Of a DNA stretch of 64,000 bases, positions 46,350-64,000 are shown piece by piece; within the stretch, counting starts at the first letter, position 1; every line of letters starts with the position of its first letter. The translations under genes and the position numbers were made by a program. The DNA comes from a candidate division FCPU426 bacterium (GTDB lineage Bacteria > Oederibacteriota > Muellerivitia > Muellerivitales > Muellerivitaceae), in assembly GCA_963847625.1 (NCBI GenBank), contig CAWKAR010000060.1, forward strand, positions 1 through 64,000. Reading direction: 5' to 3'. The notes under the pieces were generated by a model that saw only the letters and a list, made by a program, of their open reading frames with translations, ran no database searches and was not told where the DNA came from.

Positions 46350-48470
46350 ATGAAGAAAATTCTGTGTCTAACAACGGTTCTCTTGTTCCTCGCGCCCGTA
46401 GCCTTCGCGGCCGTGGTTGAGGATTGGACCAATGTGCAAGGTGCGAACACCGGAACCTATATGGACAGCAACGGCTCCAAGATCGACTTTGCGGTCGATG
46501 CGGGCCCCAAGGGCGGGCAGAAGGCGTTGAAGTTGACCTCCAGCCTCGTGCAAGGGGGTTATTGCGGCATCTGGCACAATTTCATGGCCGACCTGTCGAA
46601 GTCCGGAAACTTGAAGTTCATGGCCAAATCCACCCTTCCCGGGGAGATCCAGGTCGCTTTGAAGGACGCCTATAACGTGCAATACATCGCCAAGGCGCAG
46701 GTCGCCGCGGATTGGGCGGAAGTTTCCATCCCCCTTTCCAGTTTCCGCAAAGACCCCTATTACACCCAACCTGACGCCATCACGGGCCATTTGATGGACC
46801 TCAGCAAGACCTCCGGGATGAACCTGGCCCCCACGATGGTAGGCTCCGCGGTGCTATTGTTCGGGCAGGTCGAGAGCGACGGGAACGTGGCCGCCGCGCC
46901 AAGCGCCCAAGCGCCCGTGACGGAGGCCAAGGATCTTCAGTTCGTCGTGATGCCCGACGAGGTTATCGGGCCCATCAGCCCCTACATCTATGGCCTGAGC
47001 GACCAGGACCCTTCCGGCATGAACGCGACCGTCCGCCGCCTGGGCGGTAACCGCATGACGGGATACAATTGGACGAACAACTACTCCAACGCCGGCACCG
47101 ATTGGAAGAATTCCAGCGACGATTGGCTCTGCGTTTCCCCCATCAAATACAACGATTGCGACCAGCCCGGCGCTCTATACCGTCATTTCGCGGAGGAAAA
47201 CCAGAAGGCGGGGCTGAAATCGCTCGTCACGATTCAGATGGCGGGTTACGTGGCCGCCGATAAAAAGGGCGAGGTCTTGAAGGAGGAGACGGCCCCGAGT
47301 CCCCGTTGGGCCAAGGTGGAGTTCGAGAAAAAAGGCCCCTACACCCTGACGCCCAAGCCGGACAGCCCGGTCGTTTACGACGACGAGTTCGTCAACTTCC
47401 TGGTTCAAACCTTCAAGCCGGCGTCGAAGGGCGGCATCAAGTTTTACAACCTCGACAACGAGCCCGCTCTTTGGTGCGGCAAGCATCCCCGCATCCACCC
47501 GGACAAGCTCACCTATCCCGAGATCTTGGATAAATCCCTCCAACTGGCTCATGCCATCCTCAAGGTGGATCCTTCCGCCATGATCCTCGGGCCGGTGGCC
47601 TACGGCTGGCAGGAATTCATCACCCTCCAGGAATCGGCGGACTACGTGGAAATGAACAAGACCTACGGTTCCTACCTCGATTACTATCTGGCCCAGTTCC
47701 AGGCGCAGGAAAAGAAGGAAGGCCAGAGGCTTCTGCACGTGCTAGACCTTCATTGGTACCCGGAGGCCCAGGGCGGGGGAATGCGCATTACCGAGAACGA
47801 CGTCTCGCCCGATTCCATCGATGCCCGCGTCCAGGCGCCCCGCAGTCTGTGGGACCCCGATTACATTGAAAAAAGCTGGATCACCCAGTGGTCCACCCAT
47901 AACAAGCCCATCTGCCTCATCCCCTGGGTCAAGGAAAAGATCGACAAGCATTATCCCGGGACAAAGCTTTCCTTCTCGGAGTACGACTACGGCGGCGGCA
48001 ACCACATCTCTGGTGGGATCGCCCAGGCGGACGTGTTGGGGATCTTCGGGAAAACCGGCGTTTATATGTCAAACTACTGGGGGGACCTGAACCCCTATAA
48101 CAAGGCAGCATTTAAGCTCTACCGCAATTACGACGGGAACAACGCGGCCATCGGGGGAACATCGGTATCCGCTTCGGCAGGGGACATCACATTGGCATCC
48201 ATCTACGCCGCGACCGACCCCTCTCAGCCAGGGACCCTATGGCTGGTGGTCTTGAACAAGAGCCAGAAGGTCGCTATCCATGGCAAGTTCAAGTTCCAGG
48301 GAAAAGAAACCTATAAGAAATATGTTTGTTACGGGTTCGACGGGAAATCGCCGGAAATCCAGAAAATCAAGGAGGGCGGGATCGACAAGGATCACTTCAA
48401 CTATTCCTTGGCACCCCTCTCTGCCACCCTCTTCGTCTGCCGGGGGAATGATCAACAACAGAAGAAATGA
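46350..48470 (+). CDS. GH44 endoglucanase/xyloglucanase with N-terminal CBM11/CIA30-like domain
   Basis: Signal peptide, ISPYIYG, RLGGNRMTGYNW..N.SNAG.DW, LDNEP.LW, LDLHWYPE and SEYDYGG. Confidence 0.9.
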   Translation: MKKILCLTTVLLFLAPVAFAAVVEDWTNVQGANTGTYMDSNGSKIDFAVDAGPKGGQKALKLTSSLVQGGYCGIWHNFMADLSKSGNLKFMAKSTLPGEIQVALKDAYNVQYIAKAQVAADWAEVSIPLSSFRKDPYYTQPDAITGHLMDLSKTSGMNLAPTMVGSAVLLFGQVESDGNVAAAPSAQAPVTEAKDLQFVVMPDEVIGPISPYIYGLSDQDPSGMNATVRRLGGNRMTGYNWTNNYSNAGTDWKNSSDDWLCVSPIKYNDCDQPGALYRHFAEENQKAGLKSLVTIQMAGYVAADKKGEVLKEETAPSPRWAKVEFEKKGPYTLTPKPDSPVVYDDEFVNFLVQTFKPASKGGIKFYNLDNEPALWCGKHPRIHPDKLTYPEILDKSLQLAHAILKVDPSAMILGPVAYGWQEFITLQESADYVEMNKTYGSYLDYYLAQFQAQEKKEGQRLLHVLDLHWYPEAQGGGMRITENDVSPDSIDARVQAPRSLWDPDYIEKSWITQWSTHNKPICLIPWVKEKIDKHYPGTKLSFSEYDYGGGNHISGGIAQADVLGIFGKTGVYMSNYWGDLNPYNKAAFKLYRNYDGNNAAIGGTSVSASAGDITLASIYAATDPSQPGTLWLVVLNKSQKVAIHGKFKFQGKETYKKYVCYGFDGKSPEIQKIKEGGIDKDHFNYSLAPLSATLFVCRGNDQQQKK

Positions 48471-48521
48471 ACCACATGTGACGTAAATCAAATCCACGAA
48501 TAAATGGGGCAATGGAAAAAC

Positions 48522-49220
48522 ATGGTTAATATAAAAAACAAATGGGTTTTGCTAACCGGCGCCAGTCGGGGTGTCGGGATGAGAGTCGCTAAAGGGTTAG
48601 CCGACCATGGTTGCAAGTTAATTTTGCAAAGCAGGAATTTAGAGGGCACCAAAATATTGGTCGAAGAGCTGAAAGCCAAGGGCGTTGAAGCTTACGGTGT
48701 TGCCGCGGAGTTATCCGATATAAAACAAGTCGAGCATTTGATTGCCGACGCCAAGCGCATATCGGAAGATCACATCGACATTCTTTATAACAACGCCGCG
48801 GTCATGACTAAATTCCATGAGGATAAATACGGCGCGACAGCCGATGAATATACCTTGAGTTTTTTGGTGAACGCGACTGTTCCTTCTGTAATCTGCAACG
48901 CGTTCATACCTCAAATGGTTAAAAGAGGCTGGAGACGAATCGTGAACGTGACTTCGGGCATTGCCGATCAGCCGCAATTAATGCCCTATAGTTGCTCCAA
49001 GGCCGCTTTGGACCGTTATGTGCGCGACCTGATCACCACCCTCGCCGGAACCGGCGTTCTTATTAATTTGATGGACCCGGGATGGCTGAGAACCGATTTA
49101 GGCGGGCCCCAAGCGCCGAACGATCCTGATCGTGTTTTGCCCGGAGCCCTGGTGCCTGTGCTGTTAGAGGAGAAAGAGGGAAGTGGTAAGCTTTACCATG
49201 CCATGGATTATTGTAAGTAA
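48522..49220 (+). CDS. Short-chain dehydrogenase/reductase
   Basis: TGASRGVG, NNAA, YSCSK and PGWLRTD. Start is 48504 or 48522. Confidence 0.92.
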   Translation: MVNIKNKWVLLTGASRGVGMRVAKGLADHGCKLILQSRNLEGTKILVEELKAKGVEAYGVAAELSDIKQVEHLIADAKRISEDHIDILYNNAAVMTKFHEDKYGATADEYTLSFLVNATVPSVICNAFIPQMVKRGWRRIVNVTSGIADQPQLMPYSCSKAALDRYVRDLITTLAGTGVLINLMDPGWLRTDLGGPQAPNDPDRVLPGALVPVLLEEKEGSGKLYHAMDYCK

Positions 49221-49283
49221 TATAAAGACGATAATCCGTAAATCACTTTACCGTTTTTCAAATAAAGGATTTAACGAAACATC

Positions 49284-50129
49284 ATGAAAGTCATTTCTAA
49301 AACACAAGCGATGCAGGACCTTTGCCGAAAATGGCGGATGGCGAAAAAAACCATAGGTTTCGTGCCCACCATGGGAGCCCTCCACGAGGGGCATTTGGAG
49401 TTGGTCAAGACCTCCAAGAAAGAAAACCAAGTCACGGTCGTTTCGATTTTCGTGAATCCCACCCAATTCGGCCCTTCCGAGGATTTTCTCCGGTACCCCC
49501 GCACCCTGGAAAAAGACAAGGCGCTCCTCAAACCCTTGGAAATCAACGCGGTTTTTGCCCCGAATAAAAGGGAAATGTATCCCCATGGATTTTCATCCCA
49601 AGTCAAGGTATCCGGAAAACTGGTGGAAACCCTCTGCGGTCCCCTCCGCCCCGGCCATTTTGACGGTGTTGCGACCGTCGTGGTGAAACTCCTCGAAATT
49701 ACACAGCCCACCCGCCTTTACCTGGGACAGAAAGACGCCCAGCAAGCGGCCGTGCTCAAGCATGTCATCAAGGACCTCAATATCGGCGTCAAGCCCGTTA
49801 TCTGCCCTACCGTCCGGGAACACGACGGCCTGGCCATGAGTTCCCGCAACTTGAACCTGACCCTAAATGGCCGCAAGACCGCGCCTATTCTTTACAGGGC
49901 CCTCAAAGTGGGGAAGAGCATCGTGGATTTGGGGGAGAATGACACGTCAAAGGTCCTGAAAGAGATCAAGAAAGTGATCCTGAATGAGAAGAAGTTCAAG
50001 CTCCAATACCTGGAGGCGGTCGAATCTGAAACCCTGGAATCCTTGAAACATGTTAAACGTGGCCGAACCCTTGTCGCATTGGCGGCCTACCTTGACAACG
50101 TTCGGTTGATTGACAATATATTGATTTAG
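49284..50129 (+). CDS. panC: Pantoate-beta-alanine ligase
   Basis: PTMGALHEGH, RPGHF, GQKDAQQ, AMSSRN and RLIDN. Confidence 0.97.
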   Translation: MKVISKTQAMQDLCRKWRMAKKTIGFVPTMGALHEGHLELVKTSKKENQVTVVSIFVNPTQFGPSEDFLRYPRTLEKDKALLKPLEINAVFAPNKREMYPHGFSSQVKVSGKLVETLCGPLRPGHFDGVATVVVKLLEITQPTRLYLGQKDAQQAAVLKHVIKDLNIGVKPVICPTVREHDGLAMSSRNLNLTLNGRKTAPILYRALKVGKSIVDLGENDTSKVLKEIKKVILNEKKFKLQYLEAVESETLESLKHVKRGRTLVALAAYLDNVRLIDNILI

Positions 50130-50300
50130 CGGTTCCTCTTCTTCAATTCATCCGTCCCTTGAACCCTCCTGTTGGCGTCTTACACCAGCCGGGCAAGGTG
50201 AAACAAAGGCAAAATGCGCCGGGGGGGTTTTATTCGTGTTATCGTTCCGCTAAACTATCTGCCATTCTTGACTGGTTTTTTCAGTAAAAGAAAGGGAAAA

Positions 50301-50666
50301 ATGGCCAGGACATTCGTTAAATCCAAGATCCAAAAAGCGACCGTGACCCAAACCGACCTCCATTACGAGGGAAGCATCACGCTCGATCCCAAGATCATGC
50401 GCGCCGCGGATATCGCGCCCTACGAGCAGGTCCACGTGCTCAACCTGAACAACGGCAACCGCCTGGAAACCTACGCCATCGGGGGTAAACCCAATTCCGG
50501 GACTGTTTGCATGAACGGTGCGGCCGCCCGCCACGCCGAGAAAGGGGATTTGGTCATCGTGTTGACCTACGAGTCTTTTCCCCAGGAACCGCCGGTGGGC
50601 TACAAACCCAAGGTGGTTTTATTGGACTCGAAAAACAGGATCAAAAAAGTGAAAAAAGGGAGCTAA
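50301..50666 (+). CDS. panD: Aspartate 1-decarboxylase proenzyme
   Basis: YEG/SITLD cleavage site, NGNRLETY and NGAAAR. Confidence 0.94.
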   Translation: MARTFVKSKIQKATVTQTDLHYEGSITLDPKIMRAADIAPYEQVHVLNLNNGNRLETYAIGGKPNSGTVCMNGAAARHAEKGDLVIVLTYESFPQEPPVGYKPKVVLLDSKNRIKKVKKGS

Positions 50667-50668
50667 CC

Positions 50669-51604
50669 ATGTCCTTGGACCTATTCCCGAATGATGAAAA
50701 GCTTTGCGCCTTGATTCGGGACCTGAAAAAAGAAAGAAAGGCGGTGATCCTGGCCCACAGCTACGAGCGGCCCGAGGTGCAGGATATCGCGGACCACGTG
50801 GGGGATTCCCTGGAATTGTCCCGCCTGGCGGCTAAAACCGACGCGGACGTCATCGTATTCTGCAGTGTGATGTTCATGGCCGAGACGGCCAAGATCCTCT
50901 CCCCCCAAAAAATGGTTCTTATTCCCGTGCCCGAAGCCGGCTGTCCCTTGGCCGACATGATCACCCCCGCCCAGTTGGCGGAGGAAAAAGCCAAGCATCC
51001 CAATGCGGCGGTCGTGGCCTACGTCAACTGCTCCGCCGAAATCAAGTCCATGGCCGACGTCTGCTGTACCTCGGCCAACGCCCTGCAGGTGGTCAACTCC
51101 GTTCCCGCGGAGGAAATCCTCTTCGTCCCGGACCAGCACCTGGGCCGGTGGGTCCAGGCCCATACGGACAAGAAAATGCTCCTTTGGGCGGGCTGCTGCC
51201 CCACCCACCAGCGCATGAAGGCCAAGGACATCCTGGACATGAAACGCGACCATCCCGGCGCGCTCGTGGTGGTGCATCCCGAGGCCAATGAGGACATCTG
51301 TAATATGGCCGACGAGGTCCTATCCACCTCCCAAATGCTCCGTTTTTGCCAGGCTTCCAGCGCGGAAACCTTCATCATCGGGACTGAGATGGGGCTGCTG
51401 CACCGCTTGCGCAAGACCATGCCCGGCAAGGTATTCCTCCAGCCCAGCAAGGGGCTGATCTGCCCCAACATGAAGATGACCCAGCTGGAGGACTTGTATG
51501 AATCCTTGAAGGCGCTCCAGACTCCCATCGAGATCCCCGAACCCATCCGCGTCAAGGCCCTGAAGGCGATCGATGGCATGTTAGCGGCGGTTCCGTCCAA
51601 GTGA
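50669..51604 (+). CDS. nadA: Quinolinate synthase A
   Basis: ILAH.Y, GDSL, AGCPLA, CCTSANA, HPE and CPNMK. Confidence 0.95.
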   Translation: MSLDLFPNDEKLCALIRDLKKERKAVILAHSYERPEVQDIADHVGDSLELSRLAAKTDADVIVFCSVMFMAETAKILSPQKMVLIPVPEAGCPLADMITPAQLAEEKAKHPNAAVVAYVNCSAEIKSMADVCCTSANALQVVNSVPAEEILFVPDQHLGRWVQAHTDKKMLLWAGCCPTHQRMKAKDILDMKRDHPGALVVVHPEANEDICNMADEVLSTSQMLRFCQASSAETFIIGTEMGLLHRLRKTMPGKVFLQPSKGLICPNMKMTQLEDLYESLKALQTPIEIPEPIRVKALKAIDGMLAAVPSK

Positions 51605-52434
51605 GGGCACGGGTTCCCAAACGCAGGCTGGGCATCGTCGGCTGCGGGGCCATTGGCTCGGTTGTGGCGGCCTCCCTGGAAAAACGCAAATCCTCTTTCC
51701 AAGTCACAGCGGTTTATGACGTAGCGCCCGCCGCGGCCCGAATACTTTCAAACCGGTTGAAATCCAAACCCGCCGTCTGCCGAAACCTCGTTTCTTTATT
51801 CCCGAAATGCGATTGGGTCCTGGAAGCGGCCTCCGTCAAGGCGGTCCCCGGGATCGCGGTGGAATGCTTGAAACGCCGTAAAAACATCGTGCTCATGAGT
51901 ACCGGGGGTTTCCTTCTCAACCGGGAACGCCTGACAGCCCTGGCCCGCCGGTTCCGCACCAAGATTTACCTGCCCTCCGGCGCTCTCTGCGGCTTGGACG
52001 GGCTCAAGGCGGCCCGGCAGGTCGGGAAACTGGATTCCTTCCAAATCACCTCTACAAAGCCCCCGGCCGGCTTTCTGGGCGCTCCCGGCCTGACCCCGGG
52101 GCAAAAAAGAAAACTCTTAACGGCAAAAAAGCCTTTTTACCTGTACCAAGGGGATGTCTGGGGCGCCATCCGCCGTTTTCCCGCCAATGTGAACGTGGCC
52201 GCGACCATGGCCTTGGCCTCCGGCGCCCCGAAACGGCTAAAGGTCCGTGTCGTGGCGGATCCCCGTGTTAAACTCAACCAACACGAGATCCGCGCCACTG
52301 GTGACTTCGGGGAGTTGGAGGCTGTGACCCGGAACCGGCCCTCCTCCCTGAACCCCAAAACCAGCGCCCTCGCGATCCAGGCGGCCTTGGCGCTTTTCGA
52401 GCGGTTGGAAAGTTACGTTGAAGTGGGAACTTGA
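51601..52434 (+). CDS. nadX: L-aspartate dehydrogenase
   Basis: GCGAIG, EAAS, PSGALCGLD, FPANVNVAA and NPKTS. Adjacent to nadA. Confidence 0.9.
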   Translation: MRARVPKRRLGIVGCGAIGSVVAASLEKRKSSFQVTAVYDVAPAAARILSNRLKSKPAVCRNLVSLFPKCDWVLEAASVKAVPGIAVECLKRRKNIVLMSTGGFLLNRERLTALARRFRTKIYLPSGALCGLDGLKAARQVGKLDSFQITSTKPPAGFLGAPGLTPGQKRKLLTAKKPFYLYQGDVWGAIRRFPANVNVAATMALASGAPKRLKVRVVADPRVKLNQHEIRATGDFGELEAVTRNRPSSLNPKTSALAIQAALALFERLESYVEVGT

Positions 52435-53398
52435 CGAGGAAGGGAACTACTCTGTGCCCAGCGCCATAATCATCAAGGGACTTTCCAAGACCTATAAGAC
52501 CGGATTTTGGCTTAAGCCAAAAGTCACCCATGCCCTGAAATCCCTTACCCTCGAGATCCGTGAGAGGGAAGCTTTCGGGCTTTTGGGGTTGAATGGGGCC
52601 GGAAAAACGACCGCCATCAAGCTGGTCCTGGGCCTTTTAAAACCTACCACGGGTGACATCACGGTCTTGGGCGGGCGTATCTCGGACCGGGCGATCCGGG
52701 AGAAGGTCGGTTACCTGCCCGAGATGCCTTATTTCTCGAAACAACACACCGGGCGTGAAATCCTCAAGTACTTCGGTTCCCTCTACGGTCTTTCCGGAAA
52801 AGCCTTGTCCTACCGGGTGGACGAGGTGTTGGACCTAGTCCGGATGACGAATGCCGCCAACCAAAGGGTATCCGGATATTCCAAGGGAATGCAGCAGCGC
52901 ATCGGGATCGGCCAGGCCCTGATCGGAAAACCCCTCCTGTTGATATGCGACGAGCCTATGAGCGGCCTGGACCCTGTGGGTTACAAGGAAATGCGCGACA
53001 TCTTCCTGGACCTGAAAAAAACCGGAACAACCATTTTCCTGAATACCCATATCCTGGACGAAGTCGAGAGGATTTGTGACCGCGTCGGGGTCCTGCACGA
53101 GGGGGTCCTCGCGGATATGACCCCAGTCGCCAGCATCATGGAATCCTCGATCCCGGTTGATTACTGGGTGGACGTTCCTCCCACGGAGGCGGCCAAGCTC
53201 ATCGGAATGCCGTTCCAGGAATCCATCGCCAAGGCCGGTGGAATCCAGGTGGCGGGTTTGGTCCTCCCGGAAACACTCACCTTACTGACCGCCCGAAGGG
53301 CCGTCATCAAGGGTATCCGGCCCCTTTCCTCCCTGGTGGAGGCCTATTTCCTGAAAACCATCGGCGCCGTTTCATCCACGGCACCGGGGAGGCGCTGA
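52418..53398 (+). CDS. ABC transporter ATP-binding protein (PilH/XapD-like)
   Basis: GLNGAGKTT, YSKGMQQR and DEPMSGLDP. The start may be GTG 52454. Confidence 0.9.
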   Translation: MKWELDEEGNYSVPSAIIIKGLSKTYKTGFWLKPKVTHALKSLTLEIREREAFGLLGLNGAGKTTAIKLVLGLLKPTTGDITVLGGRISDRAIREKVGYLPEMPYFSKQHTGREILKYFGSLYGLSGKALSYRVDEVLDLVRMTNAANQRVSGYSKGMQQRIGIGQALIGKPLLLICDEPMSGLDPVGYKEMRDIFLDLKKTGTTIFLNTHILDEVERICDRVGVLHEGVLADMTPVASIMESSIPVDYWVDVPPTEAAKLIGMPFQESIAKAGGIQVAGLVLPETLTLLTARRAVIKGIRPLSSLVEAYFLKTIGAVSSTAPGRR

Positions 53399-53399
53399 A

Positions 53400-54176
53400 A
53401 TGAACCGAATCCTCAGGGTTTGCGGTTATACCTTCCGGGAACTGGTCCGAAGCAAGATGCTATACGTCTGGATCATCAGCGTGGTGGTGCTTTCCGGGCT
53501 GGCTTTCCTTCTTTCCCTTTTGAGTTTCGGGGAAGTCCATAAGATCTTCATGGACCTGGGGTTGGTGGGCATGGAGGTGACCGGTTTGATCGTGCTTTTA
53601 TTGAGCCTGGCCGTGACCTACTCGACCGACATGGACCAGAAGGCTATTTATCTCCAAATGGCCAAGCCGATCACCCGGGGTGAATACCTGATGGGCCGGG
53701 TCCTGGGCTTTTTCCTCGTGAACACCCTGGTGGTAGTTGGAATGGGCGCGATGGTCGTGTGCCTGGTTGTTTTTGTCGGGGGAGGCCAGGTTCCCCCTCT
53801 TTTTTACGCCTGCGCGGCCTTCACCCTCCTTGAATTATTTCTCCTGACGGTGCTGGGCCTGACCTTCCAGATGATCGCCACTTCCATGGTGGGTGTTTTT
53901 CTTTACACCTTTTTCGCTATTTTCCTGGGTCACTTGATCGGGGAGGTCCAATGGCTTCTCCAACAGCAATTGGCCCCGTTCCTGAGGCACCTTCTCCAGG
54001 TCATCTATTATTGCCTGCCAAACCTGGAAATTTTCAACCTCAAGGACCGGCTTTATGACCCCGCCCTCATCCTGGGCTGGCCGCAGTGGAGGGAAGTCCT
54101 CCTCTACACCTTCGCCTATTCCTTCGTGGTCTTCCTCATCGGATGGATCAACCTGGAAAAAAGGGAATTCCGTTGA
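53400..54176 (+). CDS. ABC-2 permease (PilI/XapB-like)
   Basis: TFRELVR, KPITR.EY..GR, YCLPNLE and multiple TMs. Confidence 0.88.
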   Translation: MNRILRVCGYTFRELVRSKMLYVWIISVVVLSGLAFLLSLLSFGEVHKIFMDLGLVGMEVTGLIVLLLSLAVTYSTDMDQKAIYLQMAKPITRGEYLMGRVLGFFLVNTLVVVGMGAMVVCLVVFVGGGQVPPLFYACAAFTLLELFLLTVLGLTFQMIATSMVGVFLYTFFAIFLGHLIGEVQWLLQQQLAPFLRHLLQVIYYCLPNLEIFNLKDRLYDPALILGWPQWREVLLYTFAYSFVVFLIGWINLEKREFR

Positions 54177-54202
54177 GGACCCAGCCGGTCTATAACCGGT
54201 TC

Positions 54203-54910
54203 ATGCGGTGGGCTCCGGTATTCCTCGTCGCCGCCTTTCTCGTCCAGGCGGTGCTCTCCCAACGCCTGCAATCCTGGGTCCACCCGGTCGCCTTTGATGC
54301 GGGGCAGGTCCAGCATATGGACAAAAAAACCGCCTCCACGGTCCGTGCGCTGGCGTTCCTGGGGGGCTTCAAGGTCCTGGTGGGTCACCTTTTTTGGATC
54401 CAGGTCATCCAGTATTACGGGGATATCGATAACTCCTTGGACCGGTACTCGAAATTATTCGATTACTGCAACTTGGCGTCGGATTTGAACCCGCAGTTCG
54501 TTCCCATCTACACCTACGGCGCGGCCGCCCTGGCCTTCCACCTGAAACGAATCGGCCAAGCCGAGGAACTTCTCCAGAAAGGAGTGACCAATAATCCGAA
54601 AGAAAACCGTTTGAAATTCATGATGGCGGCCATCCTTTACCAGCACGCGGAAAATTACGAGAAGGTGATCCCTTTCCTGGAAGCCCAGATTGAAAGGGGG
54701 GACGCGCCTGACATGCTGGTGAATATCCTGGCCAATACCTACATGAAAGCGAGCAAGTACGGCGACGCTATCCGCCTCTGGAAAAAAATTCTCCGGAATT
54801 CGGATACGGACCAGCAGAAGATTGAGGCTGGTGAAAAACTCCAGGAACTCTATATCACCATAAAAAAATTACAGCAAAATGTAACGACACAGGGGGATAC
54901 CGTTCCCTAA
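54203..54910 (+). CDS. TPR-like membrane-associated protein (PilG/XapA-like)
   Basis: N-terminal TM, LFWIQVIQYYG..LNPQF motif and helical repeats. The start is uncertain (TTG 54173 or ATG 54203). Confidence 0.7.
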   Translation: MRWAPVFLVAAFLVQAVLSQRLQSWVHPVAFDAGQVQHMDKKTASTVRALAFLGGFKVLVGHLFWIQVIQYYGDIDNSLDRYSKLFDYCNLASDLNPQFVPIYTYGAAALAFHLKRIGQAEELLQKGVTNNPKENRLKFMMAAILYQHAENYEKVIPFLEAQIERGDAPDMLVNILANTYMKASKYGDAIRLWKKILRNSDTDQQKIEAGEKLQELYITIKKLQQNVTTQGDTVP

Positions 54911-54987
54911 GTCCCAAAATACAAATTCGAAAGGGCAATCCAAACACACCCCTGTCTTTCACCCGAGCTTATCCACGAGGACTTTCG

Positions 54988-55941
54988 ATGATTCACCTCC
55001 TGACCTTAAACCCCGCCTTAGACCTGTTCCTGGGCCTGAAAGAGCCTTCCCAAGGGAAGATTGGGGAAGCTGGCTCCCCCACGGTTACTGCCGGGGGAAA
55101 AGCCCTGAATATCGCCCGTTTTATGGGAAAATGGGGGGTAAGGCACCGCGTTTGGCTTGGGACTGGAGGGGGTTCTGATCCCACCCATGTTCTTTACCGT
55201 GCCCTTCTGAAAAGGGAGGGAATCCCCGTAAGTTTCTTGAGCAAAACCGCCCGCATCCGCTGGAATGTGGTGGTTCACCGGAATAACCGCTCACAAAAGT
55301 ACAACCACCCCGGATACCGGCTGGAATCCAGAATTTTTTCTAATCTTAAAAACCAGGTCAGAAAAAATGATTACCTTGTTTTAACCGGCCGGCTTCCCCA
55401 GGGAATGAATACCTCGCTTTATGCCCATTGGATCCGTTTCTTTAACCGGAAAGGTGTTAAAACAATCGTGGACACCTCGGGTAAAGCGTTACGTGAGGCT
55501 TTGAAGGCTACCCCCTGGTTCTTTAAGATTAATCTTTATGAGCTGTCGGAGGCCTTGGGCCGAAGGATTACCCAACTGGGTCCTGTACCAGCCCTGGTGA
55601 AAAAACAGTTCCTAAAAAGGGGCCTTACCCATGGATCTGTTACGGATGGACCCCGGGGAGCGGTTATTTGGAGAGGGAAAGAAATTCTCCGGGTTGAAAG
55701 CACACTGAAGGTGAAAAACAACCTGGTGGTCGGAGCGGGAGACGGATTCCTGGCAGGTTACTTGAAAGGTTTTGCCGGCGGAAAATCTTTTATGGATTGC
55801 GCCCGTCTGGCTTCCGCCTCGGGGACAGCAGTAGCCTCGAAGGGAATTGATGGTTTCGATTCAAAAGGAGTTGTCTGGCAAATGAAGTTTGTTCACGTTA
55901 GTAAATTAAGAACTTTTAACAAAACTAAAGCTCTACTATGA
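54988..55941 (+). CDS. 1-phosphofructokinase family hexose kinase (PfkB)
   Basis: TLNPALD, AGGKALN, VDTSG and VGAGDGFLAG. Confidence 0.92.
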   Translation: MIHLLTLNPALDLFLGLKEPSQGKIGEAGSPTVTAGGKALNIARFMGKWGVRHRVWLGTGGGSDPTHVLYRALLKREGIPVSFLSKTARIRWNVVVHRNNRSQKYNHPGYRLESRIFSNLKNQVRKNDYLVLTGRLPQGMNTSLYAHWIRFFNRKGVKTIVDTSGKALREALKATPWFFKINLYELSEALGRRITQLGPVPALVKKQFLKRGLTHGSVTDGPRGAVIWRGKEILRVESTLKVKNNLVVGAGDGFLAGYLKGFAGGKSFMDCARLASASGTAVASKGIDGFDSKGVVWQMKFVHVSKLRTFNKTKALL

Positions 55942-56004
55942 ACAACTATTAATAAAATCAGTAATTCTTAAGTCTAAAAGGCGTCAAGCAAAACCTAATC
56001 CTTT

Positions 56005-56179
56005 GCCACGGATTCAGGGGATGTGCCGATTCACCCCTAAAGCAGTCAAGGAAATCGTTACTATACCGAACTTTCATTGAAAGCTTTAATGAGGTTCGGC
56101 ATGCATTTAGATTGGGCTAAGAAAAAAGGCTTTAAATATTTATGTTTATTAAATCCCATGAATCCCATGCATCCGTGGC
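56005..56179. repeat. REP/MITE-like element with terminal inverted repeats
   Basis: GCCACGGATTCAGGGGAT ... AATCCCATGCATCCGTGGC around an AT-rich core. Confidence 0.5.
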
Positions 56180-56283
56180 TAGGTTTATTTTGAACAGGTT
56201 AGAATTTTGTTAGTGTCTCTAAGTTGATCTACATACAAACCATAATGTTTAGTTAAACCGAATTCTAGTACCGGGAATAACTC

Positions 56284-57570
56284 TTGAATCTCGAAAACAG
56301 GGTCATCTATTCAGTCGCGGAAATAATCCAGACAGCCCGGGCGCTCCTGGAAGCCAAGTTCCCCCATGTGTTGGTGGAAGGGGAAATCGGCGAATACACC
56401 CTCGCCCCCTCCGGCCACATGTACTTCAACCTTAAAGACCAGAAGTGCGCCCTCTCCTGCGCCTTTTTCAAGGGCAACAACCAGGCCCTGGCCTTCAAGC
56501 CGGAAGCCGGAATGAAAGTCATTGCGGGGGGAGTCCTTACCCTTTACGAGCGCAACAGCAAGTTCCAACTCAACGTCCGCACCTTGGAGCCCAAAGGCGT
56601 TGGAGCCCTTCAAATTGCCTTCGAACAGTTAAAGAAAAAGTTGATGGAGGAAGGCCTTTTCGAGGAGGAGAGGAAGAAACCCATCCCGGAATTTCCCCAA
56701 CGGATCGCTTTGATAACCTCCCCGAGCGGAGCGGCTATCCAGGATTTTATGAAAATTTTGGAAACCCGGGTCGGGATCGAGGAAGTGGAGCTTTTCCCTG
56801 TGAAAGTACAAGGAACTGAAGCTCCTGGCGAAATTAAAGCCGCCATCGAGGAAGTATCCCGCCAGGCCTCCCATGATGTCCTGATTCTCACCCGCGGCGG
56901 GGGCAGCTTGGAAGATCTTGCCGCCTTTAATGACGAGGGGGTCGTCCGCGCCCTGGCGGAATGCTCCATCCCCACCATCAGCGCCATTGGACATGAGGTG
57001 GATTTCACCCTCTGTGATTTCGTGGCCGACCGCCGGGAGCCGACTCCCACCGCCGCCGCGTCCCATTTAACCCCAGGCCGGGATGAGATAAAGGACCAAC
57101 TCGATAACCTGCGCCACAGGCTCCAGGAAGCTTTGGGAAACAATATTGAGTTGAAGAAGCGCGACTTAAGAGAATTGTTGAAAACCTTGAGGGAACGCCG
57201 CCCGGCTTTCTTATTGGACCAAGCCAGGCAGGATCTTGATTCCCGGGTGGAGGAGCTAAAACAGCTTCTTCAGGACAATCTCCAGGAAAAACAACAACGG
57301 CTCAACCGACTCAGCGACATTTTGGCCCGGACCACGCCCCTGCAGTTAATCAAGCCTTACCGGGAACGGCTTCTGGGACTCCAAGCCCAAATGGAGGCCT
57401 ACCATCCTTACGGCCCCTTGAAGCGGGGTTATGCCATCGTGACCCAAAAGAAAACGGGGAAGATTTTAAGATCGCCCAAGGGCTTGGAAGCGGGGGAGAG
57501 GCTTCGTATCCGCCTCGAAAAAGGCTCTTTAGAATCGGATGTGGTTTCAACCGACCCCAATTCCCAATAA
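56284..57570 (+). CDS. xseA: Exodeoxyribonuclease VII large subunit
   Basis: VEGEI..SGHMYFNLKD, ITSPSGAAIQD, RGGGSLEDL and SAIGHEVD. Confidence 0.96.
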   Translation: MNLENRVIYSVAEIIQTARALLEAKFPHVLVEGEIGEYTLAPSGHMYFNLKDQKCALSCAFFKGNNQALAFKPEAGMKVIAGGVLTLYERNSKFQLNVRTLEPKGVGALQIAFEQLKKKLMEEGLFEEERKKPIPEFPQRIALITSPSGAAIQDFMKILETRVGIEEVELFPVKVQGTEAPGEIKAAIEEVSRQASHDVLILTRGGGSLEDLAAFNDEGVVRALAECSIPTISAIGHEVDFTLCDFVADRREPTPTAAASHLTPGRDEIKDQLDNLRHRLQEALGNNIELKKRDLRELLKTLRERRPAFLLDQARQDLDSRVEELKQLLQDNLQEKQQRLNRLSDILARTTPLQLIKPYRERLLGLQAQMEAYHPYGPLKRGYAIVTQKKTGKILRSPKGLEAGERLRIRLEKGSLESDVVSTDPNSQ

Positions 57571-57657
57571 TTTTCTGTACCGAGTTTCCCACCAGCATTG
57601 GCAATAACCCATTAAACGGAGCGGAACCCAGTACGCAGGGCTGGCCGCCCGAGGCTA

Positions 57658-57831
57658 CATGCCGACCTACCATAAAACTGTTCAGGGGTCGGTATAGTAC
57701 CGATTTCCTCCATTTATCCCGGCTATAGCCGGGACCAAAAATAGATAAATCGGCACAAGCCGCGAGGGCGAAGCCTGCCAGTGCATGCCAGCCCACCATA
57801 AAGCATTTAAAGTGGCTGGTATAGCACCGAT
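57658..57831 (+). repeat. Two direct copies of a ~48-bp REP-like palindrome
   Basis: CATGCC(GA/AG)CC-N~17-GG(TC/CT)GGTATAG(T/C)ACCGAT at 57658-57704 and 57784-57831. Confidence 0.75.
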
Positions 57832-57885
57832 CTCAATATCTTTTTAAGGTAGATCAGCGCAGATTTAAATGAAATCTGTGCCACG

Positions 57886-58920
57886 AACCCAGTGCAGGAG
57901 GTCGTGAACCCAGTTCCGGGAGTGGGCTAACCCAGTTCCTGGGGAGATAACCCAGTTCCGAGAATTGAGCTAACCCAGTTCCAGGGTCAGCAACCCAGTT
58001 CCAGAGGAGATAAACTGCCCACATTCCCGGTGGCATCCGTCGGCAAGGGGGATAAACTGCCCACATTCCCGGGAACACCCGTCGGAAAGGGGAGATAAAC
58101 TGCCCACATTTCCGGTGTCATCTGCCGGAAGGGGAGATAAACTGCCCACATTTCCGTCGGTAACCCAGGATAACCTGGTGACACCTACTATATAAACGGC
58201 TTGGAATCCATTAAACGGGACGGAACCCATTAAACGGAGCCGGGCGAATCCATTAAACGGAGCCGGGCTAATCCGTTAAACGGGACGGAACCCAGTTCCC
58301 GGGGTCACGAACCCAATACGCAGGAGGATAAACCGCCCACATTTCCGGGAACATCCATCGGAAAGAGGAGATAAACTGCCCACATTCCCAGTGTCATCTG
58401 CTGGCAGGGGAAGATAAACTGCCCACATTTCCGGTTCCATCTGCCGGAAGGGAGGATAAACCGCCCACATTCCCAGTTCCAAGGGGCACGAACCCAGTTC
58501 ACGGAGGGGCGAACCCAGTTCCGGAAGTGTGCTAACCCAGTTCCAGAGGAGATAACCCGCCCACATTTCCGTCGGCACCCGTCGGAAAGGGGAGATAAAC
58601 TGCCCACATTTCCGGTTCTATCTGCCGGAAGGGAGGATAACCCGCCTACAAACCCAGTGTCATTTGCCGACAGGGGGGATAAACTGCCCACATTCCCGGT
58701 GTCATCTGCCGACAGTGGGAGATAAACCGCCCACATTTCCGGTCATCTACCGACAGGGGAGGATAACCCGCCCACATCCCTGCCCGCAGGCGTCGGAGTC
58801 CTGCCCGCAGACGTCAGGGGTCCTGCCCGCAGAAACCGGTAGCCCTGACCGCAGATGCTGGGGGTCCTGCCCGCCGAGGTCGGTAGCCCTGACCGCACGG
58901 GCTGGATTCACTGCCCGCAT
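57886..58920. repeat. Composite phased repeat array (four motif families, ~21 and ~42-43 bp periods)
   Basis: AACCCAGTTCC, GATAAACTGCCCACATTYCC (14 copies), CCATTAAACGG and CCTGCCCGCA (7 copies), all counted directly in the sequence. Confidence 0.95.
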
Positions 58921-59077
58921 AGGGGGGGTAACTTGCCGCTACCCCTGAAAATCCATTGAAGACTCCTAATTTTTGGATTAAATCGGCTTTTTACCGTCTA
59001 TAGGGTGTGAAAAGAAATACCCCTTGTATATAGAACGTGGGAAAATTAGCTATATCCGGCTAAACGTGGACGGTCAA

Positions 59078-62000
59078 ATGATTAAGAAGAACGTATTCCG
59101 CAATAGGTTGCGTTTTTTAAATGCAGGTCTATTTGCCTGCGTCATCTTAGTTTTTGGAATGGGTTTGGTTGCCACAACCCATAACAGTTCTTTCCCCGTA
59201 ACAAAAAAATCCAATGCTTCTTCCAAAGCCCAACTTGATGCAGGCACTCGCTTGAAACTCAATCAGAATTACGGCCACATCCCCCTTTATTTCGAACCCA
59301 ATGAGGGTCAAACCGATCCTCAAGTTAAGTTCATTTCCAGGGGAAGCGGCTATACCTTCTTTATTACGCCCGCCGAAGCGGTATTTGTCCTTAAACATGG
59401 AGGGCCTAAAGATTTATCGCAGAAAACCGGAAGACTTGGTCATAAATTCCCAATTCCTAATTCCTCATTCCAAATTGGTTCTCCAGATGTTTTACGCCTG
59501 AGGCTCGAAGGTGGTAACCGCATGGCCGAATTCGAAGGGATGGAAAAGGCGGAAGGGAAGAGTAATTACTTTATCGGAAACGACCGTTCCAAGTGGCATA
59601 CCAACATTGCTAACTACACTAAAGTGAAGATAAAGGAAGTCTATCCCGGCATCGACATGGTGTATTACGGCGCGCAGCGAAAGCTGGAGTACGACTTCGA
59701 GGTTAAACCTGGAGCGGACCCAAGTGTCATTGGTCTCAGTAACCAGGGTGCCAAAAATGCTGAGGTGGACAGCCAAGGGAATTTGATATTCCACATGGCC
59801 CAAGGAGATGTGGCCTTCAAGGCTCCGATTGTTTACCAAGAACAAGGCGCTGGAAAAACCAAGATTGATGGCGCCTACAAGATTAGGGCGGACGGAAAGA
59901 TCGGTTTTGAAACGGGGAACTATGATAAAACCCTTCCCCTGGTGATCGATCCCCAATTAGATTATTCGACTTATTTGGGTGGAAGCTCAAGTGATCAAGG
60001 CTCAGCCATCGCTGTGGATGGGTCGGGAGATGCTTATGTGACGGGTGATACATATTCAATGGATTTTCCCACATCCAGTGGCGCCTATCAGACGGCATTG
60101 GGTGGAACCGGAGTTTCAAACGCATTTATTTCGAAACTGAATGCCACAGGAAGCGCCTTAATCTATTCGACCTACCTTGGTGGGAATGGGGGGGAATCGG
60201 GTCACGGTATCGCGGTGAATGGATCGGGGAACGCTTATGTGACGGGTTATACGACTTCGACGAATTTCCCCACTACCACCGGGGCCTATCAGACGACATT
60301 GGGAAGCGCTGGAGTCACGAATGCTTTTGTTACGGAGATTAATTCCTCTGGGAACGCCCTGGTGTATTCGACTTATTTAGGTGGGAGTGAAAGCGATTAT
60401 GGATGTAGCATTGCGGTGGATGGGACGGGGAATGCATATGTGACGGGCGCATCGGGTTCAAATTTTCCCACGACCACTGGAGCCTTTCAAACGGTTTGTA
60501 GTGGTTCTGCTGCTTTTATCACGAAACTAAATCCTGCGGGAAATATGCTGGTCTATTCGACTTATCTTGGCGGAACCGGAGGGGATATCGGTTTTAGCAT
60601 TGCATTGGACGGGTCGGGGAACGCGTATGTGACGGGATGTACGGGTTCAACGGATTTTCCAACCAGCAGTGGGGCATATCAGACAACTAATAACAGTGCA
60701 CCTGGAAACGGAAACGGTTTTATTACGAAGCTCAATTCCTCGGGGACCAGCTTAATCTATTCGACATATTTGGGCGGGAGTGGGGGCCTACAGGCCCGTG
60801 GCATCGCAGTGGATGGGACAGGGAATGTATATGTGACGGGATTAACAAACGGAAATTTCTCGGTTGGAGGCCCCATTGTAAATTTTCCCACGACCAGCGG
60901 AGCCTTTCAGACGGTGTTTGGTGGTGGTATTTTTAACGCTTTTGTTACGAAGCTTAATTCTATAGGAAGCGCTTTAGTTTATTCTACTTATCTGGGCGGG
61001 AACTTGGAGGATATTGGTACCGGCATCGTTTTAGATGGGTTGGGAGACGCTTATGTGACGGGCGATGCTGAATCATCGAATTTTCCCACGACCAGTGGGG
61101 CCTATCTGACGGCTAAGACCGGCAATATGTCTTTTTTGACAGAGTTGAATACGACAGGAAGCAACCTGATCTATTCAACATTATTGAGCGGGTCACAATG
61201 GTTTATTGAAGGAGGTGTCGCTTTAGACGCACAAGGCAATGTTTATGTGACAGGATATACATCATCAACTAATTACCCTGCGACAGACGGGGCTTATCAG
61301 ACGACTTTTGGAGGTGTTGAGGATGCTTATGTGGTCAAACTTGATGCTTCGGATTTTTATACTGACACCCCTACTATCACATCCACTATGACCACCACCC
61401 CAACCCCGACGAATTCCAGTACATCAACCGAAACACCTACCGTTACCTATAGTCCGTCGCCGACTAGCACCGCAACCGACACATCTACTGCCACAAACTC
61501 ATCCACGGTTACAAATACCTCATCGTCAACGAATACACCCACAGTAACCAACACCTTTACTTCAACAAGTTCCCCGTCGCCGACCAACACTTTTACTATT
61601 ACCAATACCCCGACGATTACTTACAGCCAGACTCCTACAAACACCTCAAGTAACACACCTACATCCGCAAATACATCCACCCCAACGAGCACTTACACGA
61701 TGACGGATACCCCAACCCCTTCTTTCACTCCATCCAATACGTACACGACCACACCAACCGGCACTCCCATGGAAACGATGACCCCAACAGTTTCAAATAC
61801 CCCGACCTCGACATCGCTTCCCTCCTGCGATGAGTTCTCCATCTCGAAAAACGCGTTTTTCCCGTCCAACGGGTCAGTATCGATCATTGTTTCCTATTGC
61901 CAGTATCCAGGCGCCTATTTCCTGGCGATTTATAATTCCGCCGGGGAACACATCAAAACTCTGGATGCGCGACATTTGGAAGGCCCGATTGCCACTTCTT

Positions 62001-62113
62001 ACTTTTGGGACGGTAGAAATAAATACGGTGATCCCTGCGCCAGCGGGGTCTATATTCTCTACCTCGTCGAGCCCTATAACCGCCAAATCAAAAGAATCCT
62101 TCTTCTAAAGTAG
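59078..62113 (+). CDS. Exported SBBP beta-propeller repeat protein with Thr/Ser/Pro linker and FlgD-Ig-like C-terminal domain
   Basis: FEPNEGQ N-domain, LVIDP, about seven YSTYLGG..IAVDGSGNAYVTG repeats, TPT-rich stalk and IYNSAGEHIKTL..WDGRN..ASGVY. Confidence 0.92.
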   Translation: MIKKNVFRNRLRFLNAGLFACVILVFGMGLVATTHNSSFPVTKKSNASSKAQLDAGTRLKLNQNYGHIPLYFEPNEGQTDPQVKFISRGSGYTFFITPAEAVFVLKHGGPKDLSQKTGRLGHKFPIPNSSFQIGSPDVLRLRLEGGNRMAEFEGMEKAEGKSNYFIGNDRSKWHTNIANYTKVKIKEVYPGIDMVYYGAQRKLEYDFEVKPGADPSVIGLSNQGAKNAEVDSQGNLIFHMAQGDVAFKAPIVYQEQGAGKTKIDGAYKIRADGKIGFETGNYDKTLPLVIDPQLDYSTYLGGSSSDQGSAIAVDGSGDAYVTGDTYSMDFPTSSGAYQTALGGTGVSNAFISKLNATGSALIYSTYLGGNGGESGHGIAVNGSGNAYVTGYTTSTNFPTTTGAYQTTLGSAGVTNAFVTEINSSGNALVYSTYLGGSESDYGCSIAVDGTGNAYVTGASGSNFPTTTGAFQTVCSGSAAFITKLNPAGNMLVYSTYLGGTGGDIGFSIALDGSGNAYVTGCTGSTDFPTSSGAYQTTNNSAPGNGNGFITKLNSSGTSLIYSTYLGGSGGLQARGIAVDGTGNVYVTGLTNGNFSVGGPIVNFPTTSGAFQTVFGGGIFNAFVTKLNSIGSALVYSTYLGGNLEDIGTGIVLDGLGDAYVTGDAESSNFPTTSGAYLTAKTGNMSFLTELNTTGSNLIYSTLLSGSQWFIEGGVALDAQGNVYVTGYTSSTNYPATDGAYQTTFGGVEDAYVVKLDASDFYTDTPTITSTMTTTPTPTNSSTSTETPTVTYSPSPTSTATDTSTATNSSTVTNTSSSTNTPTVTNTFTSTSSPSPTNTFTITNTPTITYSQTPTNTSSNTPTSANTSTPTSTYTMTDTPTPSFTPSNTYTTTPTGTPMETMTPTVSNTPTSTSLPSCDEFSISKNAFFPSNGSVSIIVSYCQYPGAYFLAIYNSAGEHIKTLDARHLEGPIATSYFWDGRNKYGDPCASGVYILYLVEPYNRQIKRILLLK

Positions 62114-62326
62114 ACTTGTTACTTGGTGGTCGCGATACCCCAATAGCCATATTGTCACAACCCAATTGGCTTAACGGGCTCCAAACGAACCCGTTAAAAA
62201 GCCGTTCTTCTTCGAACCCGGTGTTAAACCGGTCAAGGGACGGCCCTCCGCACCGCAGCGTAGGGCAGGGCTTCGGGTCGCCACTTGGACGGGGCATGCG
62301 CCGATTCACCATAAGACTGTAAGGTA

Positions 62327-62492
62327 ATCGGTGCTATACCGACCACCTTATAAGATTAATAGAAGGTCGGCATGGAACCCCGCCCACCCATTGGCCAGTT
62401 GGCCAAGGGCAGTAAAATTCACGAGTACACGGCTAGGCACTCTGGCATGCCGACCTTCAATAAAATTCTAAAGAGGTCGGTATTGTGCCGAT
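62327..62492. repeat. Inverted pair of the same REP-like palindrome
   Basis: The reverse complement of 62327-62374 reads CATGCCGACC..GGTCGGTATAGCACCGAT. A forward copy lies at 62446-62492. Confidence 0.75.
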
Positions 62493-62545
62493 ATCTTTAT
62501 TGTCTTTTGGAAAATCGGCACAAACCCGAGGCCTTGGCAGCCGGT

Positions 62546-62586
62546 AAAAAAAATCCCCCATGCCTCGAAGGGAAGCATGGGGGATT
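62546..62586 (-). terminator. Intrinsic terminator of the minus-strand gene
   Basis: AATCCCCCATGC/GCATGGGGGATT stem with an adjacent A8 (U8 on the minus strand). Confidence 0.7.
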
Positions 62587-62607
62587 GAGTTCGGTTATAA
62601 AAAATAA

Positions 62608-63651
62608 TTACTTGATGGTGGCGATGCCCCACATGGCCGGATTGTCCCAGGCGTCGATGGTGGCGTTCCAAAATATCTTCTTTTCCCTCGCGCCGGCATC
62701 GCTGGCCTTGGCCACGGCCGCGTCGAACTTGTAGGATTTCCCGACGGCCCAGTCGTTTTCCAGGAGGTTGGACAAGGGGATGATCCCTGTCAAGATATAG
62801 CCCTTAGCCGTTGGAGTAACTTGAACCTTCCCGCCTTTCATGACCGTGCCGATGGGGAAAAGCCGGATGACAGGCTTGCCGGAATCACCGGTGGGAGCCA
62901 TAACAAACTGAAAGTCATAGTCCGACTTCTTCATACGGCTGGTCTGGGCCATGCTCGACTTCGAGGAGAAGTAGAGTTCCAGGCAGTCGGCGTTCCAGCA
63001 GTTGTCGAAGTTCTGCTTGTTGACCGGGCCGCGGCCCTGGGTCACTTCGCAGGCGACATAGATGTTCTTGAGGTCCGTGGCAATCCGCAAATCGGCCGAA
63101 AGGTCGGCGGCGCCGGTGACCTTGCCGATGCAGATATGGTCCTTGTTGGCCGGGGAAAGATGGATGGAGGGAACCGCAGCAAAGGGCGTCATCCCGGCAT
63201 CGATGGCCAGGGGCGCAGCGACATGTTGGATGACGGCCGGTCCGCCAGCTTCGACGGCTTTGGCGGCGGCTTTCTTGGCCCTTCTCACCCTTTTGACGGC
63301 CTTGGCCTTCGCCGGGGCCGGTTTCGCGGCGGCGGCAGCCGGAGCAACGGTGGCCACTGGAGCAACAGCGGCAGCCGGAGCAACGGCGGCTGGGGCAGCG
63401 GCGGCTGGCGAAGCGACAGCAGCAACAGGCGAAGCAACGGCGGCGGCAGTGGTATTAGTATCAGGCGGTATAACAGGCGGCTTAAGCCCGTCTTCAATCG
63501 GGGGCGGCATTGGCGGGGCGTCCGTATTAGCGGCTGGCGTAACGGCAGCCGGGGCATTCGCGGCCGGAGCAGCAACGTTATCCGCGGCCTTCACTAAGCC
63601 GTAAATCCCGACGAACAAAACACAGAACAACGCTGTCATAATGCGCTTCAT
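62608..63651 (-). CDS. Exported protein with Ala/Pro/Lys-rich linker and CBM9-like (DOMON-type) sugar-binding domain
   Basis: GGAGG RBS, signal peptide, DLSAD...NIYVACEV..WNADCLELYF..GYIL..IPLS..P.MWG. Confidence 0.78.
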   Translation of the reverse strand: MKRIMTALFCVLFVGIYGLVKAADNVAAPAANAPAAVTPAANTDAPPMPPPIEDGLKPPVIPPDTNTTAAAVASPVAAVASPAAAAPAAVAPAAAVAPVATVAPAAAAAKPAPAKAKAVKRVRRAKKAAAKAVEAGGPAVIQHVAAPLAIDAGMTPFAAVPSIHLSPANKDHICIGKVTGAADLSADLRIATDLKNIYVACEVTQGRGPVNKQNFDNCWNADCLELYFSSKSSMAQTSRMKKSDYDFQFVMAPTGDSGKPVIRLFPIGTVMKGGKVQVTPTAKGYILTGIIPLSNLLENDWAVGKSYKFDAAVAKASDAGAREKKIFWNATIDAWDNPAMWGIATIK

Positions 63652-63807
63652 CCAAAGCCTCCTTTATGTACATGGTTCTTTACTTCAATGGCCTGGATTC
63701 ACCTGACACTTGAGGACCGGGCCTTGAGGGAAAACATTGTATGCGGGGGATGAGTTTTGGGCAAATAATTTGAAAAGGGGTCAGGAGATATTTAAAACCC
63801 CAAATCT

Positions 63808-63946
63808 GTCATTGCGAGGAATACCCGTCGAATAGGCGGGTGTTTATGACGAAGCAACCTAAGTTAAAATAATGCTAAATCTTTATCCGGCAAAACCACC
63901 CATATACTGGGGTTGCTTCGCCGCACAATTCGCGGCTCGCAATGAC
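63808..63946. repeat. Palindromic MITE/RPE-like element
   Basis: GTCATTGCGAG...CGAAGCAACC ... GGTTGCTTCG...CTCGCAATGAC nested inverted repeats. Confidence 0.75.
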
Positions 63947-64000
63947 GAATAAAATTAAGGGAATTAAACCGAGTTCACACGAACCCCGAAAAATCGGTTA

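Follow-up and report, generated by a model that had tools for sequence, protein, structure and literature searches.

The window analysed here comprises 64,000 nucleotides of contig C60 of genome G000; G001 is a genome of the same genus. An array of short tandem repeats sits between xseA, the gene for the large subunit of exonuclease VII (56284..57570, + strand; Pfam PF02601, E 3e-93), which forms the left flank and lies outside the element, and a gene for a 1029-aa surface protein with DUF7948, SBBP beta-propeller and FlgD-Ig domains (59024..62113, +; hereafter the SBBP gene). A single-copy, terminator-like hairpin (62543..62587, no strand assigned) forms the right end of a segment that is missing from G001. 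All parts of the array are given on the + strand. It starts with a detached 5' piece (57606..57638), matching other arrays, that holds one C core at 57609 and one A-type core at 57625. Next comes a spacer of about 65 bp that recurs within other arrays and is split here, as alignment of filled and empty forms showed, by two elements (57639..57881). The main body consists of block A (57886..58003; six cores spaced 20-23 bp), block B1 (58006..58160; four units of 42-43 bp with two sub-cores each), a single unit of a fifth family, E (about 58149..58190), block C (58205..58283; four cores spaced 19, 23 and 23 bp), a stretch of two A cores, four B units and three A cores (58289..58545) with a half-period (32-bp) shift before 58491, block B3 (58548..58777; six units) and block D (58778..58920; seven cores spaced 21-22 bp), which starts 12 bp past the last B core. 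The 3' end of the array and the upstream region of the SBBP gene (58881..59023) are duplicated together with a paralogous gene on contig C28, to which a 77-bp exact match starts at 58881.

The original prediction had placed four motif families here, and all of them were recovered. For family A, each of the 11 listed positions is present (57886 as the variant AACCCAGTGC and 58310 as the variant AACCCAATAC), and further cores lie at 57625 and 58651. All 14 B positions are likewise present, 12 of them matching the full 20-mer, and the B unit does carry two sub-cores, as expected if the 42-mer is a dimer. The four C cores have an additional copy at 57609, and the seven D cores span 58778-58909. 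The family count nevertheless has to be raised to five by the E unit, and the extent also needed correction: the listed block stands, but the array starts near 57606 and is interrupted by the two elements. In all four families the cores are conserved while the linkers drift, and all cores share a common register, with an 11-bp core in each family and two cores per B unit. These cores are non-palindromic, direct 11-mers on one strand. As had been claimed, no frame is maintained through the array, there being 6-17 stops in each of the six frames and a longest open stretch of 145 codons on the minus strand. With at least four non-coding tandem units per family block, at 20-23 bp in A and D, 19/23 bp in C and a 42-43-bp dimer in B, the array has the structure of a bacterial satellite of 20-23 nt. 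It contains no regular inverted-repeat (hairpin) unit. Nor is it a CRISPR array, since its linkers of about 10 bp are homologous rather than unique spacers, and the junctions between blocks reuse shared linkers. It does not correspond to a known structured RNA, Rfam giving no match near threshold (best E 0.18, far below gathering scores).

The two elements that interrupt the 5' spacer are about 75-100 bp long, carry terminal inverted repeats and lie at about 57657-57756 and 57784-57859. Empty forms of the same spacer occur on contigs C24, C28 and C50, with variants on C13 and C34, so the elements look inserted as whole units. Because this spacer recurs inside other arrays, the array appears to have begun near 57606 originally. 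The genome holds 178 such elements, and they are not enriched at arrays (they occur in 3 of 29 intergenic regions with an array and in 78 of 788 others). Five copies lie in the window, at 56014-56106, 57657-57756, 57784-57859, 62290-62377 and 62442-62531.

Autocorrelation gave peaks at 21/22 bp (z 4.6/6.3), 42/43 bp (z 13/12), 63, 84-86, 105 and 127 bp (200 shuffles). The predicted lock to two helical turns of about 21 bp thus holds within blocks, but across the array the lock is to about 10.6 bp. For the 50 cores from 57887 to 58909, phase coherence was R=0.84 at 10.62 bp and at most 0.43 at 20.5-22.5 bp, the register having been set by alignment of the core sequences and being uncertain by about one base. 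Random shifts among the 11 blocks equalled the observed value in none of 2000 trials. The 21-bp register breaks twice by half a period, between 58459 and 58491 (32 bp) and between 58766 and 58778 (12 bp), and together with the 10.62-bp lock these half-period shifts mean that one face of the helix is kept for about 96 turns. Between the 5' cores and the rest of the array, the two inserted elements leave a distance of 261 bp, or 24.6 turns. Genome-wide, 109 inter-family junctions fall into 49 distinct types (R=0.74 at 10.65 bp) and 23 family pairs (R=0.87). Spacings of 42 and 43 bp in B (29 and 26 times) and of 22 and 21 bp in D (32 and 13 times) reveal no triplet constraint. However, in-register recombination between homologous units would give the junction phase automatically, so the phase is not in itself proof of selection.

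A search of this genome and its relatives for the cores and for co-occurring genes, as the original prediction had suggested, was productive. With 16 motif patterns we found 42 related arrays in G000, spread over many contigs, of which the window array is the longest. Eight are pieces in rows beside a specific gene and 34 are gene-less; 23 of the latter hold at least two families, so that the mosaic is not unique within its genome. A two-family, gene-less mosaic is also present in another genus, one with paralogues of the gene family described below. Array DNA itself matched two of the 25 genomes searched, G000 and G001, while the D dimer was found in two and the C dimer in three of 41 genomes. 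The genome has several lineage-specific families with conserved short cores. A periodicity scan that used no motifs found 50 non-coding arrays in G000 (4.5 per 400 kb), one array in 400 kb of a paralogue-bearing genome, away from any paralogue, and none in two family genomes without close paralogues (400 kb each, 800 kb in total); this co-occurrence sample is small and drawn from related genomes, its negatives being those two genomes. Mis-assembly is an unlikely source of the array, the longest exact repeat being 41 bp inside it and 77 bp elsewhere in the genome.

Genes of one protein family are repeatedly found next to the arrays, and in G000 seven copies carry its N-terminal domain. Nearly pure rows of a single repeat family lie just upstream of these genes: family A before the gene on C37, an A variant (A') before that on C13 and family B before that on C33, with four other repeat families in rows before the remaining G000 paralogues. 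The family profile matched 14 of 41 genomes, and 54 of 59 loci were examined, the five omitted being weak hits. All 37 high-scoring members, from seven genomes, have an upstream repeat row within 1.1 kb (one pairing required a manual skip over an inserted transposase gene), and the rows end 14-218 bp before the start codon; the row was absent in all 17 weak, distant members examined. Blocks A, A', B and E of the window array are identical to rows directly upstream of specific paralogue genes. The first core of block A is the variant found before the C13 paralogue, whereas its remaining cores match the rows before the C37 paralogue and the G001 paralogue L028. Block B1 belongs to the family found before the C33 paralogue and its G001 orthologue L014, and these two genes, 84% identical, show the pairing kept across genomes. 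The E unit matches the row before the G001 paralogue L038, a gene type found only in G001 and not in G000. Families C and D had no matching gene in G000 (94% complete) or at any paralogue locus examined, including those of G001 (96%). Overall, 12-mers taken from the rows, almost entirely those of G000 and G001, cover 55% of the window array on the same strand, compared to 0% on the opposite strand and 0.3% in shuffled sequences.

Row similarity tracked the recognition helix of the proteins across genera (partial rho 0.12-0.20, p 0.002-0.04, 31 gene-row pairs), with a sliding-window peak at columns 39-47 and no correlation with the rest of the domain beyond that helix. The covariation is weak, and L038 and L043 differ in their cores despite an identical helix. 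By eye and post hoc, cores with the ending GGCA accompany S-Q/H-I-T-type helices, and cores with the ending TAAAC accompany K-x-M-V-S-type ones. Such a pattern, read from the sequences, would assign D and C to cross-reacting paralogues. D-like satellites of 21-22 bp with the D core also occur on 16 unrelated metagenome contigs (L201-L216), and no gene of the family was found on the sequence of these contigs. Such repeats can therefore arise without the ParB-like family, and the sequences suggest that the D word recurs independently.

What kind of protein would read these rows? Pfam gave no match for the N-terminal domain, and sequence searches of the PDB with it gave none either. A whole-library profile search found 191 relatives. 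Among the distant hits tested, 20 of 21 have a ParB_N domain (E<=0.01) ahead of the matched region, but ParB_N (PF02195) was absent from all 13 close members (six own paralogues and seven close hits), and the only two PF02195 genes in G000 are not paralogues. Profile comparison aligned the close and distant groups over 131 columns with a probability of 99.4%. The domain model is all-helical (pLDDT 77), and its top 11 Foldseek rows were all ParB, Spo0J or Noc structures, SopB among them, at TM of about 0.5 and probability of at least 0.99, with E-values of only 0.13-0.33. Direct profile comparison with the ParB of G000 itself was not significant (probability 0.9%), although the alignment fell on the helix-turn-helix. 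On the whole the paralogues show homology to the ParB DNA-binding domain, with the helix-turn-helix fold predicted by the model. A hydrophobic 19-residue window (hydropathy >=1.7) was present in 33 of 37 members, from which a transmembrane helix is predicted. Many of the longer relatives (L020-L025, L058-L062, P0080-P0114) have ParB_N or a hydrophobic segment, and none has an upstream row where tested; they are possibly an ancestral, membrane-bound ParB family. A 7-bp repeat lies within the SBBP gene (59445-59476), and comparable heptamer runs lie next to some arrays; in the paralogues they are translated into S-S-I-Q-N-like repeats.

The position of the array differs between close relatives. 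In G001 the hairpin equivalent to 62543-62587 directly follows xseA, with no array behind this orthologue, and hence a segment of about 5 kb with the array and the SBBP gene was either gained in G000 or lost in G001. Gene lists place xseA in an ordinary gene context in most of nine other family genomes. In several family genomes other genes fill the slot between xseA and ispA, which marks it as a variable insertion site; here these two genes are separated by the array, the SBBP gene and a CBM9 gene (window 57570-64000; G000 C60:64273). Sliding 48-mers of the array find their best matches in different distant arrays (46/48 on C47, 47/48 on C50 and 48/48 on C28), and these often match better than the other segments of the array itself. 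The 3' end of the array, the upstream region and the SBBP gene are duplicated on C28 at 80% identity over 1.4 kb. With the array absent at the G001 locus and its segments matching different distant arrays, it probably arose as dispersed homologous arrays recombined in register.

Several well-known repeat systems share features with this one. In SopB/sopC of plasmid F, a protein with a ParB-type helix-turn-helix is encoded beside a row of direct repeats of about 43 bp. Here, however, no parA partner was seen, the cores are non-palindromic, and the sites are chromosomal, dispersed and multi-family, with a reader predicted to span the membrane. The REP/BIME sequences of enterobacteria are dispersed intergenic mosaics of a few motifs bound by nucleoid proteins; they differ in that the present units are direct, non-palindromic, helically phased and without stem-loops, and that there is a candidate reader per family. 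Plasmid-origin iterons are direct repeats of 17-22 bp with helical spacing, but here no rep gene or AT-rich stretch adjoins, and there are five families at 42 chromosomal sites.

The array DNA fits the published class of non-coding bacterial satellites of 20-23 nt (and 52 nt) described by Subirana and Messeguer, for which binding of a nucleoid protein has been proposed (PMC8161180). The main text of that paper describes species-specific families, several of them in each genome, whose short cores are conserved and which turn over from strain to strain, and it treats their role as an enigma (PMC8161180). The present array is alike in its non-coding, two-turn tandem repeats, its several families per genome, its cores and its turnover, being absent behind xseA in G001. 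The original prediction, which knew of no named element with a multi-family organisation, was therefore mistaken on this point, multi-family satellites of this length with conserved cores having been published in that main text (PMC8161180). In contrast, no partner protein is named there, and 'ParB', 'membrane' and 'mosaic' each occur 0 times in the main text (PMC8161180), whereas here families A, B and E have a candidate reader gene directly behind the row and the families are fused in one phased mosaic. Our literature search returned no paper linking 20-23-nt satellites to a reader, nor any on gene-row pairing or phased mosaics. This locus newly shows families joined into a mosaic and locked to one another at 10.6 bp, an insertion relative to G001, and some families that lack a candidate reader.

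Among protein systems the nearest is Noc of Bacillus subtilis, which recruits DNA to the membrane from dispersed chromosomal NBS sites (PMC4331003). Noc reads 16-bp sites (PMC8429893), and specificity in ParB and Noc is set by a few residues around the recognition helix (PMC7383237). Shared with Noc/NBS, as those papers describe it, are dispersed chromosomal sites and the ParB-family DNA-binding domain, here predicted. According to those papers Noc is a single protein that has a CTPase domain as well as an amphipathic helix. In the present system a genome can hold up to a dozen or more matches to the family, which lack a ParB_N match and have a predicted transmembrane helix and a distal C-terminal domain, and the sites are direct 11-bp cores in clusters. 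To judge from sequence, the system would resemble Noc/NBS in its working but is no member of the ParB/parS and Noc/NBS group: the ParB-type helix-turn-helix is there, albeit with weak Foldseek E-values, and both the CTPase domain (ParB_N) and the palindromic 16-bp site are lacking.

We propose that the array is a multi-reader membrane tether, bound in trans by several membrane-anchored ParB-type proteins, and we put the chances of this proposal being right at about even. The recognition helix of each paralogue would read the core found in that paralogue's row. Without a CTP clamp for sliding or spreading, the proteins would rely on many phased sites and gain avidity from the many direct repeats, and on the mosaic several paralogues could bind next to one another. 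Blocks C and D would be read by cross-reacting paralogues or would have lost their reader, and the locus would be kept at the inner membrane by the transmembrane helices, an outcome that Noc reaches by different means (PMC4331003). The idea of a one-face platform for a trans-acting DNA-binding protein, put forward in the original prediction, is borne out indirectly by the candidate readers on other contigs and by the phased cores across family junctions. Of the identities it proposed for the platform, that of a nucleoid organiser comes closest. The tether is weakened by two observations: of the 499 cores in gene-less arrays, only 274 are of a family that has a matching gene in G000, and the array position is not conserved even within the genus. 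More tentatively, and with the expectation that it may well go too far, one can imagine a combinatorial address code from chromosome to membrane, in which clamp-less, membrane-spanning ParB domains would each read their own 11-bp word and mosaics would load at least five readers. Such a code would be a CTP-independent analogue of Noc, rewritable by recombination and possibly tied to envelope signals through the distal PDZ-like domain.

The main rival, which we find doubtful, holds that only the gene-side rows matter, for example as autoregulatory operators, and that the gene-less mosaics are inert relics of gene-array modules gained and lost, spread and mixed by ectopic recombination, with any binding incidental. 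It draws on the 45% of gene-less-array cores without a matching gene in G000, the restriction of the family E gene to G001, the two of seven G000 paralogues broken by inserted transposase genes, the different paralogue and row at the G001 locus syntenic with the C33 gene, the array segments that best match different distant arrays at up to 48 of 48 bases, and the unconserved position. Yet plain copying would not favour cores that stay conserved while linkers drift, as they do even in C and D; the phase survives in 23 family pairs; and 42 arrays of this length are long and numerous for debris. It is unlikely that the arrays are operator blocks controlling the next gene, here SBBP, through membrane-spanning one-component regulators with the DNA-binding head inside and the PDZ-like domain outside. 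Array strand is independent of the downstream gene (19 same, 12 opposite, p=0.28), the adjoining genes are heterogeneous, promoter-like sites are not in excess (1 found, 1.2 expected), and fifty sites over 1 kb exceed the usual need of an operator, although the rows beside paralogue genes often abut the ribosome-binding site, the end of the array is duplicated on C28 with the upstream region and the SBBP gene, a weak PDZ_6 match below the cut-off occurs in two of six paralogues, and gene-less arrays are oriented like the majority of the surrounding genes in 21 of 28 cases (p=0.013).

Were the array instead a generic 20-23-nt satellite, with a role in nucleoid-protein polymerisation or as small RNA that is independent of the protein family, the genes beside the rows would be passengers. 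Satellites that are multi-family, species-specific, conserved in their cores and subject to strain turnover do occur in many bacterial groups, according to the main text of PMC8161180, and the D-like satellites elsewhere come without the gene. However, the pairing of row and gene (37/37 against 0/17), strand-specific and near the start codon, the covariation of helix and motif, and the absence of an Rfam match near threshold make this very unlikely in our view. Hardly credible, finally, is an iteron origin or centromere of an integrated element (iteron- and centromere-like identities were among those the original prediction offered) or an assembly artefact. Direct repeats with helical spacing and the segment of about 5 kb missing from the G001 locus would suit it, but that segment carries the SBBP gene alone, the same motifs lie at 42 sites on many contigs, the units differ (longest internal exact repeat 41 bp), and the B-to-E junction is also present in G001 loci. 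The flanks are xseA and the beta-propeller gene, with no adjacent rep or parAB (ORFs of 48000-64000 listed, four scanned), and GC skew has no inflection in the window at the array that would indicate an origin or terminus.

Non-coding satellites of 20-23 nt are common in bacteria, and for families A, B and E candidate readers can now be named. With five families in phase on one array, a single 1-kb probe would cover binding, specificity and membrane tethering. If the tether is real, chromosomal sites would be attached to the membrane independently of the CTP clamp on which ParB and Noc rely, and if the address code were also true, its proteins would be the first identified reader for two-turn bacterial satellites. 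The dozens of natural helix-motif pairs form a dataset on the evolution of helix-turn-helix specificity.

Rearrangement was also seen around other arrays. The slot of G000 C33:40738-42135 holds a different paralogue with its row (L038) in G001, the true orthologue lying elsewhere, and gene-plus-row modules appear to swap places. For several G001 arrays (L119, L080, L043) the two flanks map to different places in G000, so arrays may mark rearrangement breakpoints. While two of the G000 paralogues are themselves broken by transposase genes, others have split rows, and at the C13 pairing a transposase gene intervenes. Many arrays in G000, or the paralogue genes behind them, are disrupted by transposase genes (C13:5139-5504, C34:107443-109366, C45:74523-76458, C35:6274-8976 and C3:149359-151175), and the arrays may be insertion targets.
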